Below are positions 26,881 through 43,626 of a DNA stretch of 64,000 bases, in pieces; position 1 is the stretch's first letter, and every line of letters starts with the position of its first letter. The notes under the pieces were generated by a model that was not told where the DNA came from, did not search any database, and saw nothing but the letters and a program-made list of their open reading frames with translations. A program made the translations under genes and the position numbers. The stretch lies in sequence record PZ445550.1; one strand, written 5' to 3'. The DNA comes from a phage.

Positions 26881-28719
26881 TTATTCTAAGTAGGAAAATC
26901 CTTCTGCATCTTTTTTGACAGTAATCTTATGAGCTAATGGATGCGTATGCCCATGAGAAACAATGATAGAGTTTAGACTTTCTTCTTCGTTTAGCAACTC
27001 AACAAGGGTATCGAGTCCTTTTGTATCAATAAAGCTAATTACTTCGTCAAGGAACAGAAGATTAATATTAACTTTACTAATAGATGTTAACAACATTCTA
27101 ATAGCTAACAGAGTTGCTAGATTGATTCTACTTTGCTGACCAGTAGAGCAGTTCTCCATGCTGGTACGGTTTCCATCATTGAAGATTACTACTTGTAATT
27201 TCGTTTCATCAAGTTCAAATCCAAGTGCGAACTTACCACCAGTCATAATAGAAAGATATTTATTAATTAATTCCTCAAATACTTTCACACTATGCTCTAG
27301 TTTATATCCTACCAAATTTTTCAGTGCAGCAATTAAAACATCAAGATCAGCAACAGCTTCTGATACTTCATTCAATTTGGAAGTAATCTCAGACATTTCT
27401 GCTTCAGCTTTCTCAATTTGTTCTAATCTTGCTTTATACTTTGCATTGGCTAACTCGACATTTGCATTATGCTCTTTAGCAATTGCAACCCTAGAACGTC
27501 CATCTGCTATTTCTTTTTCTAATTGTCGGATTTGCACCAGTAGGTTCTGCACATTGAGTTCTTCAAAAGAAACATCACTCATTGAATTTTTAAACTCATC
27601 TCTAGCCGCTACTGCTCTATCTAAGGAATCCTTAGCCCTATTATATGCAGTATACTCAAGTTGCTCTTTCTTCAACTGCTCGAGTTTAGCTTCAAGAGAT
27701 TGTTTCTCTTTGAACAGAGGATCATATTCTGTTCTAGCCATATCCATTGCTTTTTGAGCAGCAGTTGTATCTAGATGAGTACCACAAGTAGGACATTCAG
27801 TATTTGAAGCCTCTTGTTTAAATTTCTGATAACGTTTCTTGACTTCTCCCGCACGTGAGGTCACAATCGTTAGGTCACGCGTAACACTCGAGATTTCTTC
27901 GTTTTGGTCGGTGGGCGCAAGTAAATTTTTGAAGGGTTCGAAAGATTGTTCGGCAACTTGTACAGCTTTGTCCAAATTACGCAATTTAGTAATATTAGCC
28001 TCTTGTGCTTTGGCTAATGCCGCCTTAATTTTCGATTCAGTAAGCTCTTGTGCTAACGGTTCTTCATCAAACTCTGGAACTTCAACAGGCTCCTGTAAAC
28101 TTCCTAGACTATTTTTATTACTAAGGATTTTCGTAATTACAGCCATTTGGCCTTGCAAGTTATTTAAAGTATTTGCTACTTCTTTACGATCGGCCTTAAT
28201 AGTTTCCGACATTTCTTTGTACTGTTCTTGATTGAACAGATTAACAAGAAAAGCCTTACGCGTTGCATCTGTTGCTTTTAAGAAGTCTAGGTTTGAACCC
28301 ACGGATTGATAAATTAGTTTGGTGAATGTTTGGAAATCACCGCCCATAATCTCTTCAATCATCTTGTATGTTTGGGTTGCCGTGTGCCCACTAATATCTT
28401 CCCCGTTCTTAATAAGAGTGACTTTAGCGGTTGATTTAACTACTTTATGCAGTTCATACTCATCTTCATCCTTAGAAAAGTAAGCATGCATATCGTACTC
28501 TTTCTTAGGAGAAGACCAAGAAAATAAAGCGTCCTTCTTAATACCACGAGAGTTTTTATTATAAAATAACTCTTCAATAACAGTGGCAATAGTAGACTTT
28601 CCTAGTCCATTTCCGCCAATTAATTGAGTAACTGGATTTTTATCGAAATGAATTACGATGTCCTTACCGTAAGACATAACATTACTAAATTTTAGTGTCT
28701 TAATTGTAATCTTTGACAT
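26881..28719 (-). CDS. sbcC: SbcC/Rad50-like ATPase (T5 D13-like)
   Basis: Walker A GGNGLGKST, long central coiled coil with CxxC hook (CPTCG), D-loop LLFLDEVISFID; start at internal ATG 28719. Confidence 0.8.
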   Translation of the reverse strand: MSKITIKTLKFSNVMSYGKDIVIHFDKNPVTQLIGGNGLGKSTIATVIEELFYNKNSRGIKKDALFSWSSPKKEYDMHAYFSKDEDEYELHKVVKSTAKVTLIKNGEDISGHTATQTYKMIEEIMGGDFQTFTKLIYQSVGSNLDFLKATDATRKAFLVNLFNQEQYKEMSETIKADRKEVANTLNNLQGQMAVITKILSNKNSLGSLQEPVEVPEFDEEPLAQELTESKIKAALAKAQEANITKLRNLDKAVQVAEQSFEPFKNLLAPTDQNEEISSVTRDLTIVTSRAGEVKKRYQKFKQEASNTECPTCGTHLDTTAAQKAMDMARTEYDPLFKEKQSLEAKLEQLKKEQLEYTAYNRAKDSLDRAVAARDEFKNSMSDVSFEELNVQNLLVQIRQLEKEIADGRSRVAIAKEHNANVELANAKYKARLEQIEKAEAEMSEITSKLNEVSEAVADLDVLIAALKNLVGYKLEHSVKVFEELINKYLSIMTGGKFALGFELDETKLQVVIFNDGNRTSMENCSTGQQSRINLATLLAIRMLLTSISKVNINLLFLDEVISFIDTKGLDTLVELLNEEESLNSIIVSHGHTHPLAHKITVKKDAEGFSYLE

Positions 28720-29677
28720 ATTTCGCAGCTCTAGCCAAGATTCGATCAATGTCGTCCTGAGATAGCTTCTCGACCTCACGGAAGTAAAGTTCAAGTTCGC
28801 CCAACATATCAAGATCAACAAGATTTAACTTAGCGTCTTTAGTAACTCGATGATTAATCTTCTTATCTAATAAATCAGAGTCTTTGATAGACTTTAATTG
28901 AACAACATCACCAGTAACTTCATAGATTACGCGATCATAATCACTAGGTTCCATTTCTTCACCAACCCCGATTGTTTTACGAATCAGTTGTGGCAAATCA
29001 CCAAGTTCAATCCATTCTACTTTTAACGTATCAGTATCAATGATAAAGCAACCATTTGTACCTTTTGTGCGTTCTCTGTGGAACGATGTAGTTAATGGGG
29101 AGCCTGGGTAAAGAAGTCTAGTAGATCCTATAGTCTGGCTATTAGTATAAGAATGTAAATCGCCAGCAATTACAGTATCATAACAGTTGTACTTAGTTAG
29201 ATCGATTTCTGGTTTTACATGTGGAGGGATTTCACCACGAACATGCGTGAAACATAGTTTTGATTTAGATGGTTTCCATTTAGATTTATGGACTTCATCA
29301 TAGGGAACAATATCAAATTCAGGAGAGCGATAGGGTTTGGTAATTACTTCCCATTTTCCACTAGTTACTTTATTAATAACTCCCGCATAATGATATAGAC
29401 ATGAAATAGTTTTAGTTAACATTTCATGGTTTCCCGTGAAGATTTTACCTGGATGATCAAGTCTTGACATGAACTGTTCTAACAGTTCTATTTCTTCCGA
29501 CGATGGGTCGGCAACATCAAGTATATCACCACCAGCAATATGAAGATCACAGTTATGATTATGGAATATATCATTTAACCGTTCTCCTAGCATCAAGAAG
29601 CGACGCTTCTGCCATTCTTTAGGTATCTTATCTTGGCCCAGCTTAATATGATGATCAGCACTAAATAGTATTTTCAC
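28700..29677 (-). CDS. sbcD: SbcD/Mre11-like nuclease (T5 D12-like)
   Basis: Calcineurin-like phosphoesterase motifs SADHH, GGDILD, GNHE; immediately upstream of the SbcC-like gene. Confidence 0.85.
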   Translation of the reverse strand: MKILFSADHHIKLGQDKIPKEWQKRRFLMLGERLNDIFHNHNCDLHIAGGDILDVADPSSEEIELLEQFMSRLDHPGKIFTGNHEMLTKTISCLYHYAGVINKVTSGKWEVITKPYRSPEFDIVPYDEVHKSKWKPSKSKLCFTHVRGEIPPHVKPEIDLTKYNCYDTVIAGDLHSYTNSQTIGSTRLLYPGSPLTTSFHRERTKGTNGCFIIDTDTLKVEWIELGDLPQLIRKTIGVGEEMEPSDYDRVIYEVTGDVVQLKSIKDSDLLDKKINHRVTKDAKLNLVDLDMLGELELYFREVEKLSQDDIDRILARAAKYVKDYN

Positions 29678-30137
29678 TTAATAGACTATCATATACTGCA
29701 TTTGCTACAGTCTCTGCTTCATGTATGGAATCTGTGTACCCATAATGCTTACCTTTAATTTGAACAAAATATCTACCAGTTGAATGTTTTAAGAAAACAC
29801 CTTTTGGTAATTCTTTATTACTATTCTTGTTTCTATTCAACTGATTGCGTGACTTAGAAGAGTCTAGTAAATTATCTATGGCATTATTTAATGGATTCCT
29901 ATCCTTGTGGTCAATTTCTTCTGGAATATATCCATACACATATAAGAAAGCTAGCTGATGTGCTTTGTACCTTTTACCATCAATTCGGATTTCCAATCTG
30001 ATATAGTTATCAGATACCCATACTTCCGTCCCTGCTATGGAGCCTTTTGATACTCTTCCCCTTGAGACTTTCCATCTAAATATACCAGTTGGAGGGTCAT
30101 AGTCCAATAACTCTTTAAGTCTATCTTGTGTAATCAT
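29661..30137 (-). CDS. HNH homing endonuclease (NUMOD4-like N-terminus plus HNH_3)
   Basis: LDYDPPTGIFRWK and IDHKDRNPLNNAIDNL motifs; inserted between D11-like and sbcD; preceded by a terminator. Confidence 0.75.
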   Translation of the reverse strand: MITQDRLKELLDYDPPTGIFRWKVSRGRVSKGSIAGTEVWVSDNYIRLEIRIDGKRYKAHQLAFLYVYGYIPEEIDHKDRNPLNNAIDNLLDSSKSRNQLNRNKNSNKELPKGVFLKHSTGRYFVQIKGKHYGYTDSIHEAETVANAVYDSLLSENTI

Positions 30138-30174: not shown

Positions 30175-30948
30175 TTAATCATCCAGATCGCTTGCAGCTT
30201 CTGGGTCAATACCTTTCTGGGCTCCAGCATTGCTATTACCAGACTTAGCATCATCATCTTTATTCTCACGACCTTCCATGAATGCTTGAATTGCTTCTTT
30301 CTGCTCTTCATAGGTAGGAACCGGATAAGTATTTTCCAGAGAAGGAACTTTTTCGAACTTGATGATGTCACCATCTTCATCACACATAGCTTCACCAATC
30401 AGGTCAGTATCTACAACATACTGCTTAGCTTCAGCACTGTTAGGATCTTGAAGTTTCATCTGGAACTGCATAGCGGCAATCTGCTGTACATCATATTCAG
30501 TATCAAAGCCTTTACCTTTTTTCTCGATAGAAATATCAATATCGAACGGAGTTGCCAGACTCAACTGCTTCATAATAGACTGGATGCCTTTCAGAATAGT
30601 AGCCTTAACTTCCATTACTTTCAGTTTGTTATCAGAACGGTCAATAACAAAAGCGATATAGTTTTTCTTCGGTTTCAGCGGAACACGATTACCGTCTTTA
30701 TCCAGTTCTTTTTCAAAGAAACCCATGTCATGGACCGGATCAGCTTTACCACGAACAAAACTCTCTTTGTCACGGTTAAAACGTAGACACTCGAACGGAG
30801 CTACTCCACCATCTTTATTAGTCAGCCAATAGACATAACGCGGAAGAACACCAGAAACGATACGAACACGAGTGATGCCGTTGTTGAACTTCAGGAATTC
30901 GATTTTATCGTTAGAACCGCCAGTAGTTTCGCCCCAAGACTTAGCCAT
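30175..30948 (-). CDS. D11-like early protein
   Basis: 257-aa ORF in conserved position between sbcD and the D10-like helicase; E. coli-optimal codons. Confidence 0.5.
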   Translation of the reverse strand: MAKSWGETTGGSNDKIEFLKFNNGITRVRIVSGVLPRYVYWLTNKDGGVAPFECLRFNRDKESFVRGKADPVHDMGFFEKELDKDGNRVPLKPKKNYIAFVIDRSDNKLKVMEVKATILKGIQSIMKQLSLATPFDIDISIEKKGKGFDTEYDVQQIAAMQFQMKLQDPNSAEAKQYVVDTDLIGEAMCDEDGDIIKFEKVPSLENTYPVPTYEEQKEAIQAFMEGRENKDDDAKSGNSNAGAQKGIDPEAASDLDD

Positions 30949-31225
30949 ATTTTATTTCCTCTTTAAAGATTAATTTCGATTTATTAATTGCGATTAGTGG
31001 GTTAGTGTCGATTACTAAACGTGGTATCCATACTGGAACATACTGTATGTCCAAACTAGGATCGTTTGTAAACTTGTATTCGGCATAATTTCGTAGACTT
31101 AAAATCCCTAGATATTCTGCCAGTTGTCTATTAGACAATTTATTTGGATTATCAACAATCGTTGATTTATTCAAAATGAATGAGGGGCCGACTAATAATT
31201 GGTGAGCATCAGGCTCTGTAAGCAT
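30941..31225 (-). CDS. Hypothetical protein
   Basis: 94-aa ORF; no obvious Shine-Dalgarno sequence. Confidence 0.3.
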   Translation of the reverse strand: MLTEPDAHQLLVGPSFILNKSTIVDNPNKLSNRQLAEYLGILSLRNYAEYKFTNDPSLDIQYVPVWIPRLVIDTNPLIAINKSKLIFKEEIKYG

Positions 31226-31332
31226 TCTTTTAAAGAGCTTAATAATTAAGTCGGAATTTCCCCTAGCTAGTAAGTATAGCCTTTCATAATCGAAGAATTT
31301 AATTTTTGTTTTCTCCTCGAATTTATGTATAT

Positions 31333-31362
31333 ATTATACTAGATTTCGAGAGAATTTAGCAA
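31333..31362 (-). promoter_or_regulatory. Early promoter (proximal copy of a tandem pair)
   Basis: Minus strand reads TTGCTA, 18-bp spacer, TATAAT, followed by a P_N25-like leader. Confidence 0.5.
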
Positions 31363-31433
31363 CTAAAATTTTTATTTTTCTGCTTCGGACTTTCTTATCA
31401 ATCCGAAACTTTCTCTCTCAAATTTATGTATAT

Positions 31434-31462
31434 ATTATACATCATTTATGGGCTGTTGCCAA
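31434..31462 (-). promoter_or_regulatory. Early promoter (distal copy of a tandem pair)
   Basis: Minus strand reads TTGGCA, 17-bp spacer, TATAAT; the -35 lies in the 3' end of the helicase gene. Confidence 0.5.
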
Positions 31463-32798
31463 ATGCAACTTTAGCTAATTGAACTGCTTTCTCAGGTGTC
31501 ATAGCAATAGTTTTCCACCCATTGTTACGATATACTGCCATACGCCCAGAAGCCTGTCTTAATCCAGTGCCTCCTTTCATAATTAGATCTACAACAATAG
31601 GATCTAGTTTACCATCAACAATACGTTGAACGCGACCTGCAAGCTGCTCAATAAGAGATTCATTATTAATGAGGCTTCCCATTATTAAGCAAGATAGTTC
31701 ATTAAGGGAGATACCTTCAGAGAAAATACTCTGAGCAGCCGCGAGTACACAGGGGTCTCCTTTTGCTATATCTTCCTGGATTTTTAATCGTTCATCTAAT
31801 GGAGTTGCTCCTATAATTTCATATGTTGTAACCCCTCGTTGCGCTAGTGCTTCCAGTACTATTTGGATTAACTCTGTCCTGTCACTCACAATGAGTACTT
31901 TGTGTCCCATACTTACATACAAATGTGCTAGATTTATAATAGTCTCTCGGTATTCAGGATGGTTATACACATCATTAGCACGCAACGCCCACGGTACATT
32001 CTGGTTTCCTGATAATTCAACAGGAACTGAATACCTATGGATTGTAGGTGCAACAGTATTATTAACTGGAGGACTAAAGATCTTATATCCAAAGAAATCT
32101 TTGAACATAACTTGTAGACCATCTTTACGTTTTAGCGTACCAGATAGGCCAATCTTGTATCGAGCACACGATATTTCTAGGAAATTAGTGAAAGTTGTAG
32201 CCACACAATGGTGGACTTCATCAACTATAACAGTACCGAATACTTTAGAAAGATTATTCGCATGTTTATTCACTGTTTGAATATTACTAACCACAATTGG
32301 TGGGTCAATATTATATTTCCCGGAGCCTATAATACCTGGCTCAAACCCAAACCATTTACGAACTTCTGCCGCCCACATTTCACGGATGGATGTATTCGTA
32401 CAGATTACCAAAGTTTTCTGGCCAAATTTATACGCAAGTGCAAGAGCTAGGATAGTTTTACCAAATCCAGGCTTACCATTAATAATACAGGTATCATCAC
32501 ATTCCTCGTATATTGGAAGCTGATCTTCTTTACGTAGCTTGAACTTAGGTTTTGGTATATCTACTGGAGCTAACGTGCGTTTGTCAACTAACTCATACTT
32601 TACTCCCTTAGCATCTAATAAGTCTAGACGCGTAATAGGAATCCACTTGATCTCTTTAGCAACAACACCACTATTCTTATACATAATAGGGTATTTACTG
32701 GTCATTGTCTCTATGTGATAAGTGGTTTGTTTACTACAGTAGTCCCAGAGTTCTTCATCGGGCTTGAAATAGGCTTTGTTAGATATAACAACCTTCAT
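31446..32798 (-). CDS. SF2 DNA helicase (T5 D10-like)
   Basis: Walker A GKPGFGKT, DExH box VIVDEVHH, helicase C-terminal motifs. Confidence 0.8.
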   Translation of the reverse strand: MKVVISNKAYFKPDEELWDYCSKQTTYHIETMTSKYPIMYKNSGVVAKEIKWIPITRLDLLDAKGVKYELVDKRTLAPVDIPKPKFKLRKEDQLPIYEECDDTCIINGKPGFGKTILALALAYKFGQKTLVICTNTSIREMWAAEVRKWFGFEPGIIGSGKYNIDPPIVVSNIQTVNKHANNLSKVFGTVIVDEVHHCVATTFTNFLEISCARYKIGLSGTLKRKDGLQVMFKDFFGYKIFSPPVNNTVAPTIHRYSVPVELSGNQNVPWALRANDVYNHPEYRETIINLAHLYVSMGHKVLIVSDRTELIQIVLEALAQRGVTTYEIIGATPLDERLKIQEDIAKGDPCVLAAAQSIFSEGISLNELSCLIMGSLINNESLIEQLAGRVQRIVDGKLDPIVVDLIMKGGTGLRQASGRMAVYRNNGWKTIAMTPEKAVQLAKVAFGNSP

Positions 32799-33292
32799 AA
32801 TTTTATTCTAAGTCTAGGAATTTCAGGCTCCTCTTGATGGACTTGGTAAATAACAGGGCTATTATTTACCAGAATATAACTTATATAGGCGGGAACATAT
32901 GGTAATACAAATGGGTACGGTACTTTAGCCACGTAACATTGATATTTTCCATTATAAATTCTAGCTGAATGTAGAACTTTAGAGGTGACAATATCATAGA
33001 ACGTAGTTTTCTTCCAATTAATAAGATTTCCATCAGAATCTATAAACTGGCTACGTTTTGACCCAACTAATTGAGACAACATTGATATTCTGCCACGAAT
33101 GGGATAGAGCTTGTAGGGTAATTCTTTCCGCTTCTCAAATAGAATAAGTCTACGTTGAGAAAATGTGCCAGGCAACTTCCTGTTATCTAGCACATATTTA
33201 TTATATCTTGTTGTAATTATGGAATAATCCCCTTCTTGCTCAATTGATACAAACGCCCGTAAAGCATATACGGGCAGTTTGAAATCAAGCAC
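32795..33292 (-). CDS. Hypothetical protein
   Basis: 165-aa ORF between DNA polymerase and helicase, with overlapping start/stop codons. Confidence 0.4.
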   Translation of the reverse strand: MLDFKLPVYALRAFVSIEQEGDYSIITTRYNKYVLDNRKLPGTFSQRRLILFEKRKELPYKLYPIRGRISMLSQLVGSKRSQFIDSDGNLINWKKTTFYDIVTSKVLHSARIYNGKYQCYVAKVPYPFVLPYVPAYISYILVNNSPVIYQVHQEEPEIPRLRIKL

Positions 33293-35852
33293 CTAAAATC
33301 CTCTTCACATTATCCAGATCTTTACATACAGCAATAAATTTATCATCCTTGTATTTATTGTGCTCTGGATGCTCTTTATCCATTGCAGCTAATTTCTTAT
33401 ACTCAAAATCTGCATCAAGTAGTACACCCTTGACATAACGAGTATATTCATCATCGTCAATACAAGCGATTGACGGGTGTTGTTTCTTCATCTTACCACA
33501 AGAGTAATCACGAGAACCACCTTTTTCAGAGTCAGAATCAATACCAATCGGGCAGCCAGGGATGCTAATACCACGATCTTTCTGAATATTACGAATCAGA
33601 ATTTCGTTGTACTGGTCAATTAAATCTTCACGAACAATAGCAACCACGGAGTCATGGACTAGCATAACAATCTTCATCTCTTGCTCTAACCCAAGAGAAA
33701 TGATCTCATTATCCGCGTCCACAGCACCTAAAAGGAGGCTATCAGAAGAGGCAGACTGAATGATTGCGTTAAATCCAGAACGGATTTCTTCACCCTGAAC
33801 TCCACGGTCTTCAGAATGGATGTTGTGCAAACGACGTTTACGACCAAAATGACTATAGATAAATCCAAAGTTCTTGATTTGGTCATGGCACTTATCAATC
33901 CAGCGCTTAAGCTGAGGGAACTGACCGAAGTAAGTTTCGATGTAGTCCTTCGCATCTGCAACGGTACATTCAACAAACGGTTCACCAGTTTTAGCAGCCT
34001 GTTCTAGAAGAGCTTCGTTAACAGAATGAGCTACCTTAGCTGGACCAGAACCGTACAAAATACCAAAGGTAATTGCTTTAGCTGCTTGACGTAGAGCTGG
34101 GAATAGCTTTTTAACATCACGCGGTTCACATTGCAGTTTAAATACCATATGTGCGATGTTAGAGTGGAAGTCAGGGTATTTATCAGGTTCATTTCTCATA
34201 TTGATAAATACTTGCTGCATATTTCTATCTCCAGATAGAACAGCAGCATAATAAACTTCCGCAGTTGTTAAGTCCCATGCAATTACACGGTATCCTTTGG
34301 GAGCTACTACACAACCTTTGATAATTGATTCATCACGAGGTAGCTGTTGCAGGTTTAGTTTACCGGAAGAACTCAGACGACCTGAAGTAGTCATATGTTC
34401 ATGGAAACCTGTACGAATGCAACCATCTGCATCAATACTCAGTAGAATCTTCTCTACATAAGTTGAGATTAGCTTAGTCAATTTACGAATCTCTAGCAGA
34501 GTCTTAGCTATTGGATGTTGCGTAGCTAATTCATTCAGAGCTTCTGCATCAGTGGAATCCGCTCCAGTATCCGTAAGTTTACCTGTTGGGGTTAAACCAA
34601 CATAATCAAACAGAAGAACACGTAGTTGTTTAACAGAGTTAGGATTAAATGCTTCATTCTGGTCTTTCTCTAGCTGAACTACTTCTGGATAAGTATACAG
34701 TTTCTCACGAGCTTTATTCAGATTATGGGTTAACTGATACTGAGCTTCTTTTAGACGATCAACAGAAATTGGTACTCCACGGTCTTCAACACGTTGTAGG
34801 AATACACAACCAGGCATTAGAACGTCGTAATACAGACTGCAAAGTTTTTCATTCTTCTCAATTTTCGGTAAGAAGAAGTTATGCAAACGTATAGTAGCAT
34901 CCGTATCTTTTGCAGCATACGGCCACATAATATCAAATGGAATTAAATCATAGGTGAAATCTTCTTTCTTGATTTTATGCGCTTTGCAGTAATCATCTTT
35001 AAACTTATCTAGTTCAAAATCATAATCACCCATATCGGTGTACTTCATTGCTAGTGATTTCAAGCCATGAGTACCACGACGTTCATCTAGAACATAGTGC
35101 TGTAACATGGTATCGTGAAGTCTACGTTCTTTATGCGCTTTATCAAAAGTAAGTCCCAGATGATACTTATAAAAGTGCATATCAAACTTCAAGTTATGAA
35201 AAACAATAGTGTGTTTTTCACTGTCCAGAATTTTCTGGAGATAGTACACTGCAACTTCCGTAAGGCAATCAGAATCGATATAAACACCTTGATACTCTTG
35301 GTGAGACATAGAAACACCAAGCAGATAACCATCACGACAGTATAATGCTGAGGTTTCGGAGTCGAATGCTACAGGTCCGATAACCATGTTGTATACCATT
35401 TTGATATATTCTTCAGCTTCGTCTGGATCTGTAATAGGACGATAATCACCAGCTTTTGCAATCTTCTCACGACCATTGATAATATCGTGGATGTTTTCTA
35501 CTGTTGCATCGAAAACTGGTTTCATTTCAGGTTTAAAGTGTAACTGGGCTGGACTAATACTTGCAATCCAGTTAGCATATCCGTTATATTCTACACGTTT
35601 ACCAGTATAATCACCAATGCCTTTTTTGCCTGCAAAGTACAGAAAAGGTTCAGCACCTACTAGTATAACAAAATCATAATCGTTCGGATTAAATGGGTTT
35701 TCTGGTGTTCCGATAGTAATGTGCTTTTTCAGCAAACGTCCAGATAACTTCTCGTTACACATATGAAATACATCAACTTCTTCACCATAAAGCTGGAAGT
35801 GCTTGTCATAACGAGTATTATTTAGTGCTTTGTCAACTACTGCGATTTTCAA
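33285..35852 (-). CDS. DNA polymerase (family A, T5 D9-like)
   Basis: 855 aa, same length as T5 polymerase; 3'-5' exonuclease motif VAFDSET, polymerase motifs DLTTAEVYY and MLVHDS. Confidence 0.9.
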   Translation of the reverse strand: MKIAVVDKALNNTRYDKHFQLYGEEVDVFHMCNEKLSGRLLKKHITIGTPENPFNPNDYDFVILVGAEPFLYFAGKKGIGDYTGKRVEYNGYANWIASISPAQLHFKPEMKPVFDATVENIHDIINGREKIAKAGDYRPITDPDEAEEYIKMVYNMVIGPVAFDSETSALYCRDGYLLGVSMSHQEYQGVYIDSDCLTEVAVYYLQKILDSEKHTIVFHNLKFDMHFYKYHLGLTFDKAHKERRLHDTMLQHYVLDERRGTHGLKSLAMKYTDMGDYDFELDKFKDDYCKAHKIKKEDFTYDLIPFDIMWPYAAKDTDATIRLHNFFLPKIEKNEKLCSLYYDVLMPGCVFLQRVEDRGVPISVDRLKEAQYQLTHNLNKAREKLYTYPEVVQLEKDQNEAFNPNSVKQLRVLLFDYVGLTPTGKLTDTGADSTDAEALNELATQHPIAKTLLEIRKLTKLISTYVEKILLSIDADGCIRTGFHEHMTTSGRLSSSGKLNLQQLPRDESIIKGCVVAPKGYRVIAWDLTTAEVYYAAVLSGDRNMQQVFINMRNEPDKYPDFHSNIAHMVFKLQCEPRDVKKLFPALRQAAKAITFGILYGSGPAKVAHSVNEALLEQAAKTGEPFVECTVADAKDYIETYFGQFPQLKRWIDKCHDQIKNFGFIYSHFGRKRRLHNIHSEDRGVQGEEIRSGFNAIIQSASSDSLLLGAVDADNEIISLGLEQEMKIVMLVHDSVVAIVREDLIDQYNEILIRNIQKDRGISIPGCPIGIDSDSEKGGSRDYSCGKMKKQHPSIACIDDDEYTRYVKGVLLDADFEYKKLAAMDKEHPEHNKYKDDKFIAVCKDLDNVKRILGA

Positions 35853-39926: not shown

Positions 39927-39955
39927 ATTATAGCAAGTATTTAAGCATTTAGCAA
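39927..39955 (-). promoter_or_regulatory. Early promoter in the ligA-ligB spacer
   Basis: Minus strand reads TTGCTA, 17-bp spacer, TATAAT. Confidence 0.55.
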
Positions 39956-40098
39956 CTACAATTTTAACTAACTTTGCTTACCCTCGCCATAACTTTCTAT
40001 CCCTCAACTGAATGATAATAGTATATACCTAAGCGGCGAAAATGTCAATAACCACTTTATAATTCCGATATGGTAGATGGGTAGCAAAGGGTTGTGAA

Positions 40099-43585: not shown

Positions 43586-43626
43586 ATTTAAACTCCTCTC
43601 TCAAATTTATGAATCTATTATACAGA

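Follow-up and report, generated by a model that had tools for sequence, protein, structure and literature searches.

In a 64,000-nucleotide (nt) stretch of phage DNA (sequence record PZ445550.1; hereafter the window), which is 100% identical to Escherichia phage KookSpook (PP925842.1), a T5-like phage, we analysed the region at 31226-31462, where two promoters, referred to here as P-A and P-B, precede an operon. This feature lies between the gene for helicase D10 (31446-32798) and the operon of D11, the single-strand DNA-binding protein (SSB), on the minus strand, as do all surrounding genes. The first gene of the operon is a small open reading frame (ORF; phrog_4258, a homologue of T5.125), annotated with 94 amino acids (aa) at 30941-31225 and likely to comprise 120 codons (30941..31303), and the second is the D11 gene (30175-30948; phrog_1607). 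An intrinsic terminator at 30169-30150, with an 8-base pair (bp) GC-rich stem, a UUCG loop and a U-tract, ends the unit, and the T5 record has a terminator annotated at the matching place.

Two early promoters upstream of the SSB operon

The upstream promoter, P-A (31427..31462), consists of TTGGCA and TATAAT separated by 17 bp (31462..31434) and matches the sigma70 consensus at 11 of 12 positions; its -35 hexamer (31462-31457) falls within the final codons of D10, and its -10 hexamer (31439-31434) is followed by the discriminator ATATAC (31433-31428). The gene-proximal promoter, P-B (31326..31362), has TTGCTA (31362-31357) and TATAAT (31338-31333) with an 18-bp spacer (31362..31333) and matches the consensus at 10 of 12 positions. 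Both are on the minus strand, and they were the top two promoter matches in a 3-kb scan. Each has hexamers close to consensus and a spacer of 17±1 bp, as expected of the T5 early class, and by analogy with PN25 transcription is predicted to start at the A at 31427 from P-A and at the A at 31326 from P-B.

The -10 boxes of the two promoters are 101 bp apart, consistent with the initial annotation, which had described two TATAAT promoter-leader units about 100 bp apart over an interval that covers both. A 31-nt direct repeat, 87% identical and offset by 101 bp, spans the two promoters, and the 19-mer TATAATATATACATAAATT is identical in the P-A and P-B copies. Such units recur in the 64-kb window beyond chance: the pattern TATAAT-N5-CATAAATTYGAG, with up to 3 mismatches, was found at 7 sites compared with 0.36 expected, and 0 of 100 shuffles reached 7. 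P-A and P-B both match the conserved initial transcribed region (CATAAATTYGAG...) exactly, and the leader sequence common to the two sites is AUAAAUU[U/C]GAG.... A discriminator common to T5 early promoters, ATATT, adjoins the -10 (Klimuk et al. 2020, PMC7472727); the ATATAC found in both promoters matches it at 4 of 5 positions, and ATATTC or AGATTC occurs in the remaining family members of the window. Outside this core, by contrast, P-A and P-B were no more alike than other T5 early family members, and the earlier description of the pair as tandemly duplicated was not borne out. A recent local duplication giving rise to P-B from P-A was considered and rejected, as upstream identity (21/50) and downstream identity (32/63) both fell within the range found between unrelated family members.

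Upstream of P-B lies the A/T tract GCAGAAAAATAAAAATTTTAG (31363..31381, minus strand), a UP-element-like region, and the sequence at about -40 to -60 of P-B has AGAAAAATAAAAATTTTAG. The position and composition of the tract suggest that it is the UP element of P-B. In an alignment of 21 Tequintavirus sequences, 1 of 18 positions of the tract varied, as did 1 of 30 positions of P-B and 0 of 25 positions of the P-A leader.

The initial annotation had proposed a comparison with the homologous intergenic region of T5, and this comparison showed identical sequence. The RefSeq record of T5 (NC_005859) annotates the promoters P31A (75467-75541) and P31B (75568-75642) between D10 and T5.125/D11, and the locus, the sequence from -10 to -10 and the 101-bp spacing are all as in the window, with no sequence difference. 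KookSpook, T5, Bf23 and 13 other Tequintaviruses have the same 107 nt from the P-A -10 to the P-B -10. On the basis of sequence, P-A is thus equivalent to T5 P31A and P-B to T5 P31B, and the earlier suggestion of strong early-type tandem promoters was upheld. Because the promoters are annotated in T5, the feature was already known; the KookSpook record does not annotate P31A or P31B, and Bf23 and the T5 record AY692264 label just one of the two.

We consider it highly probable that P-A and P-B are two co-directional sigma70 early promoters (T5 P31A/P31B) serving one SSB operon. Both would transcribe the 120-codon small gene and D11, ending at the terminator at 30169-30150, from starts that, as placed by PN25 analogy, lie about 124 nt (P-A) and about 23 nt (P-B) upstream of the first ORF. 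We found no terminator-like site between P-A and P-B (31427 to 31333), and P-A transcripts would therefore run through the intervening hairpin and P-B into the operon. The tandem arrangement probably serves strong early expression of the SSB operon. Comparable arrangements are found in the A1-A2-A3 promoters of phage T7 and in rrn P1-P2 of Escherichia coli, where strong co-directional promoters for the host polymerase, about 100-125 bp apart, feed one unit with very high output; these are unrelated in sequence to the P31 pair, and T7 has downstream RNase III sites.

The start of the small gene and the leader of P-A

The P-B leader, AUAAAUUCGAGGAGAAAACAAAA (31304..31326, minus strand), contains the Shine-Dalgarno (SD) sequence GAGGAG at 31318-31313, which lies 9 nt upstream of an ATT at 31303-31301; the annotated ATG at 31225 (Met27) has no SD. 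Upstream of the annotated ATG, 26 codons continue the frame without a stop, and the alignment of this extension begins at residue 1 in 905 of 907 phage records. Over these codons KookSpook and Sepoy differ by 10 synonymous and 3 conservative changes (manual codon count). Epseptimavirus, Klebsiella, Pectobacterium and Vibrio phages have ATG as the orthologous start, phiR2-01 and KKP_3711 have TTG, and the ATT is invariant in 21 of 21 Tequintavirus sequences and in 20 of 20 exact IMG/VR pattern matches, which are largely the same contigs. Consistent with a longer protein, the phrog_4258 profile is 120 positions long and matches residues 1-120 of the extended product, and an AlphaFold2 (AF2) model of that product had an overall predicted local distance difference test (pLDDT) score of 93.6, with residues 1-26 folded at a pLDDT of 95-97. 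As judged by comparison of sequences, the small gene thus most probably begins with AUU (31303) and its product has 120 aa rather than 94, and the annotated ORF would therefore lack 26 codons in KookSpook and in most T5-like records.

Initiation at AUU has precedents in infC and pcnB of E. coli, in which a good SD is combined with AUU where orthologues have AUG, lowering translation. Unlike the infC type, the small gene bears no sign of autoregulation of the kind exerted by initiation factor 3 (IF3), and its start was deduced by comparison. The P-B leader would be a working translation initiation region, with GAGGAG followed by AUU. With so weak a start codon on a very strong mRNA, little of the small protein would be made, whereas D11, with its own strong SD and AUG, would be abundant. 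The position of the gene-proximal promoter may produce a similar imbalance in relatives. In phiR2-01, KKP_3711 and the metagenomic relatives L048 and L050, only 0-1 nt separate the -10 of this promoter from the small-gene start codon (adjoining -10 boxes at L006 1662-1671, L011 888-897, L048 1495-1503 and L050 1494-1503), and the proximal transcript therefore cannot encode the full-length small protein. The corresponding gap is 4 nt in Klebsiella phages and 11 nt in VCPH and Pogseptimavirus. With the proximal promoter set this close to the gene, its transcript would yield D11 in preference to the small protein.

The P-A leader, AUAAAUUUGAGAGAGAAAG (31409..31427, minus strand), resembles the initial transcribed sequence (ITS) of N25 and carries a degenerate SD-like box with no start codon after it. 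Downstream of this box, GAGAGAGAAAG (31419..31409), we found no ATG or GTG before P-B, just a 9-codon frame starting with TTG and a 22-codon frame starting with ATT; these micro-ORFs were rejected as candidate genes, as their start and frame are not conserved in Klebsiella phages. At the family sites at 43600 (the PN25 homologue), 50752 and 62537 of the window, a GAGAG(G)AG box is instead followed by ATG 7-10 nt on. The leader of the PN25 homologue is GAGAGAGGAG, followed by ATG; in PN25 this box doubles as the SD of gene D2, whereas the P-A box GAGAGAGAAAG resembles a weakened form of the same family SD and has no ORF after it. The earlier description of an orphan leader thus stands for P-A, where the box is followed by no ATG or GTG before P-B, but not for P-B, the leader of which precedes a real ORF start.

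The conservation of a leader without a gene is probably explained by a role in the promoter. Positions +1 to +20 of P-A (AUAAAUUUGAGAGAGAAAGU) differ at 3-4 positions from the published N25 ITS, AUAAAUUUGAGAGAGGAGUU. The ITS of PN25, comprising the first 20 transcribed nt, sets promoter escape, and the native sequence gave about tenfold more productive RNA than an anti-ITS (PMC12464699). Since the ITS governs escape at PN25, a leader of this type would be conserved as part of the promoter even without a gene, which would account for the P-A leader being an orphan. These data suggest that the leader is a promoter part and not the relic of a gene.

The inter-promoter interval and alternative explanations

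Among the 21 Tequintavirus sequences, 5.6% of sites in the 142-nt intergenic region were variable, compared with 15-20% of third codon positions in the downstream ORF and 59% in D10 (intergenic region versus third positions of the downstream ORF, Fisher p = 0.0009). The P-A/P-B interval is under purifying selection and not decaying. Across 30944-32040 of the 21 Tequintavirus genomes, variability falls sharply at the boundary between D10, with 59% in its 3' half, and the intergenic region. This drop suggests a recombination (mosaic) boundary or differing selective histories on the two sides.

Within the interval lies the hairpin that the initial annotation had placed between the promoters. Its core, TTCGGA-N12-TCCGAA, was confirmed at 31384-31407 and occurs once in the window, with 0.01 occurrences expected by chance, and RNA folding extended it to a 10-bp stem at 31409..31382 with an 8-nt loop (GUUUCGGAUU / AAGUCCGAAGC; 31382..31409, minus strand). 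The 138-nt region from the P-A +1 into the ORF folds with a minimum free energy (MFE) of -30.3 kcal/mol (z = -4.1), and its first 95 nt gave z = -4.4. Epseptimavirus, phiR2-01 and Klebsiella phages have all retained the 10-bp stem. In the last of these groups, the core spacing is 3 nt, compared with 12 in T5, and the 5' arm lies in non-homologous columns, which form the loop in T5; the hairpin is rearranged, yet the total promoter spacing shifts by just 1 nt. This relocation of the 5' arm at near-constant spacing argues for a stem over an operator that binds a dimer, and in terms of covariation it is the only indirect support for the structure. A long-range helix, GAGAGAG/CUCUC, was predicted in T5 and Klebsiella phages and dropped, because Epseptimavirus and phiR2-01 do not have it. 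An RNA-level role in the P-A 5' untranslated region (5'UTR) is the most likely one for the hairpin, which could act there as a stabiliser or a pause or processing site, or could act as a 3' protector of the D10 mRNA.

Several observations weigh against the interpretation of the locus as a pair of early promoters with a structured leader and an AUU-initiated first gene. The discriminator of both promoters is ATATAC and not the consensus ATATT, and P-A has no A/T-rich UP element or A-tract because its upstream half is D10 coding sequence. The literature searched for P31A/P31B, T5.125 and mapping of T5 transcription start sites (TSS) yielded nothing relevant, the classic Bujard papers being outside the reach of the search, and contained no transcription start data for P31A or P31B, the T5 labels of which may be predictions themselves. 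Primer extension of 19 T5 promoters gave products for only 11 (PMC7472727). For the hairpin, a covariation test on 12 distinct sequences found changes on both sides at 0 of 10 pairs, with shuffles equal to the observed value; its conservation in Tequintavirus does not exceed that of synonymous sites (4 of 28 hairpin positions variable, p = 0.79), and 3 of 4 singleton stem mutations there disrupt a pair, whereas a fifth stem change, in an Epseptimavirus, retains its pair as U-G. The hairpin was also absent from lineages such as KKP_3711, D232 and L041 despite a similar promoter layout. Finally, translation of the small gene might begin at Met27 instead, although there is no SD at that position.

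The initial annotation had suggested that the interval holds either a lost small gene or a short non-coding transcript. If a small gene had decayed here, the SD-like box would represent the former ribosome-binding site of that gene and the hairpin its former 3' end, and the resemblance of the P-A box GAGAGAGAAAG to a weakened family SD (GAGAGAGGAG) fits this idea. So does the layout of Ceto-like Vibrio phages, in which a P-A-type leader, GAAAGAGAGAAG, is the SD of an unrelated 134-aa gene (CETO_52, phrog_25412) situated between the two promoters, with a P-B-type promoter and the 120-aa gene after it. An intact gene at this site in relatives, which had been named as a sign of simple decay, thus exists in these phages. 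However, CETO_52 has no homologue in the window (a tblastn search with this inter-promoter gene gave no match) and was found here in no phages other than the Ceto-like Vibrio phages examined, whereas the gene-free layout of two or three promoters is far more widespread and recurs in Klebsiella, Enterobacter and several Vibrio lineages. Moreover, just about 65 nt separate the P-A leader from the UP element of P-B, no reading frame is common to T5 and Klebsiella phages, DU_PP_V and L039 have a single P-A-type promoter that feeds the 120-aa gene directly, and the interval is under the purifying selection described above; a lost gene is consequently improbable. The strength of P-A, the stable folding of its transcript (z = -4.1 to -4.4) and the retention of the hairpin across four phage groups would suit a discrete non-coding RNA (ncRNA) of about 50-100 nt that contains the hairpin and is formed by termination or processing before P-B. 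This product is very unlikely in our judgement, as there is no terminator and the hairpin is followed by GCAGAAAAAUAAAAA, an A-tract that forms the UP-like element of P-B, and not by a U-tract. A search of 30800-31700 against Rfam (E ≤ 10) had a best score of 18.6 bits compared with a gathering score of 40.5, the hairpin showed no covariation, conservation of the outer helix does not extend to Epseptimavirus or phiR2-01, and other lineages with a similar promoter layout have no hairpin at all.

Two further readings have even less to recommend them. The palindrome TTCGGA-N12-TCCGAA may be a DNA operator for a dimeric regulator, perhaps the downstream small protein, which has a weakly winged-helix-like fold. 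The distance between half-sites, 12 nt in T5 and 3 nt in Klebsiella phages, is incompatible with one dimeric binding mode, and the site occurs once in the 64-kb window, so that we give an operator very little credence. It is just as doubtful that P-A is an inactive look-alike, conserved through the coding of D10, with only P-B in use. The -35 and upstream sequence of P-A are indeed constrained by D10 codons, and P-A lacks a UP element; however, its non-coding part, comprising the -10, the discriminator and the 19-nt leader, is invariant in 21 genomes, Sw2-type phages kept the 25-nt D10 tail with the -35 as non-coding DNA before P-A, and a P-A-type promoter is the sole one available to the operon in DU_PP_V.

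Promoter arrays in the T5 family

The layout of the promoters varies among relatives. Pectobacterium phage DU_PP_V and a My1-like contig have a single promoter that, like P-A, has its -35 in the D10 tail and leads directly into an SD and the start of the small gene. Two promoters are present in T5-like phages, Epseptimavirus, phiR2-01, Enterobacter phage KKP_3711, the Vibrio phages D232, D260 and VCPH, and the metagenomic contig L041, and three in Klebsiella phages and Pogseptimavirus. The three tandem TATAAT promoters of the Klebsiella (Sugarlandvirus-like) and Vibrio Pogseptimavirus phages lie at L007 1909-2107 and L115 573-790. Spacings from -10 to -10 at this locus were 92, 94, 95, 98, 100, 100, 100, 101, 101, 101, 103 and 117 bp; an exactly conserved spacing of 100-101 bp became less credible as lineages were added (92-117 bp), with values clustered near 100. 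T5 and Klebsiella phages have 90% identity over about 63 nt around P-B, from the 3' arm of the hairpin to the -10, compared with only about 65% for the flanking proteins.

The DNA polymerase gene (33285-35852, minus strand) is separated from D10 by a 165-aa ORF on the same strand. The GenBank record of KookSpook places the start of D10 (31446-32798) 93 nt, and that of D12 (28700-29677) 84 nt, later than the longest ORFs and the T5 and Bf23 annotations do, and both annotated genes are probably too short. An HNH endonuclease gene (29661-30137, minus strand) is inserted after the D11 terminator in KookSpook and is absent from T5 and Bf23. In Sw2-type Salmonella phages, a related HNH gene lies in the 3' end of D10 (L005 973-1503); D10 has a new C terminus there, RLAQEVFKA-stop, and the former 25-nt D10 tail, including the P-A -35, is retained as non-coding DNA downstream of the HNH gene.

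A second tandem pair is annotated in the T5 RefSeq record, P-K28b and P-K28a, 93 bp apart, along with P-N25 and P-N26, and the tandem early promoters P-K28b/P-K28a upstream of ligB were reportedly described by Gentz and Bujard in 1985 (cited as ref 38 of PMC7472727). The homologous PK28 pair in the window lies at 40025/39932 on the minus strand (39932-40046), 93 bp apart and upstream of ligB, and behind the leader SD of its upstream promoter there is just an 8-codon mini-ORF (MARVSKVS-stop). Similar to the P31 pair, P-K28b and P-K28a are two strong co-directional promoters, the upstream leader of which bears an SD without a real gene; by contrast, they occupy another locus, have no hairpin between them and have TATACT as the upstream -10. 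Tandem strong promoters with an ORF-less upstream leader thus recur in T5 and have been recorded there before.

Throughout the T5 family the SSB operon is preceded by arrays of two or three promoters spaced by about 100 bp, and the upstream promoters keep an ORF-less N25-type leader. It is conceivable, although on balance unlikely, that the array is more than simple stacking and is a selected regulatory module that sets the ratio of small protein to SSB. Such a module might act through promoter interference or pausing, through structure in the 5'UTR, as the hairpin is maintained between the promoters in the T5, Salmonella and Klebsiella phage groups, and through a start codon that is by design weak in, or missing from, the proximal transcript. 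The last device could take the form of AUU in T5-like phages, of a -10 within 0-1 nt of the start in phiR2-01, KKP_3711 and some metagenomic relatives, or of a near-leaderless transcript in several Vibrio phages.

The current understanding of T5 transcription is unchanged by these results. Their value for annotation is that the records of KookSpook and most T5-like phages omit the promoters and shorten the first gene of the SSB operon by 26 codons, and the useful new point is the likely AUU start of this truncated gene. The comparisons also provide evidence that an N25-type ITS is selected as a part of the promoter even without a following gene, and that multi-promoter arrays before the SSB gene are a design shared across the family.
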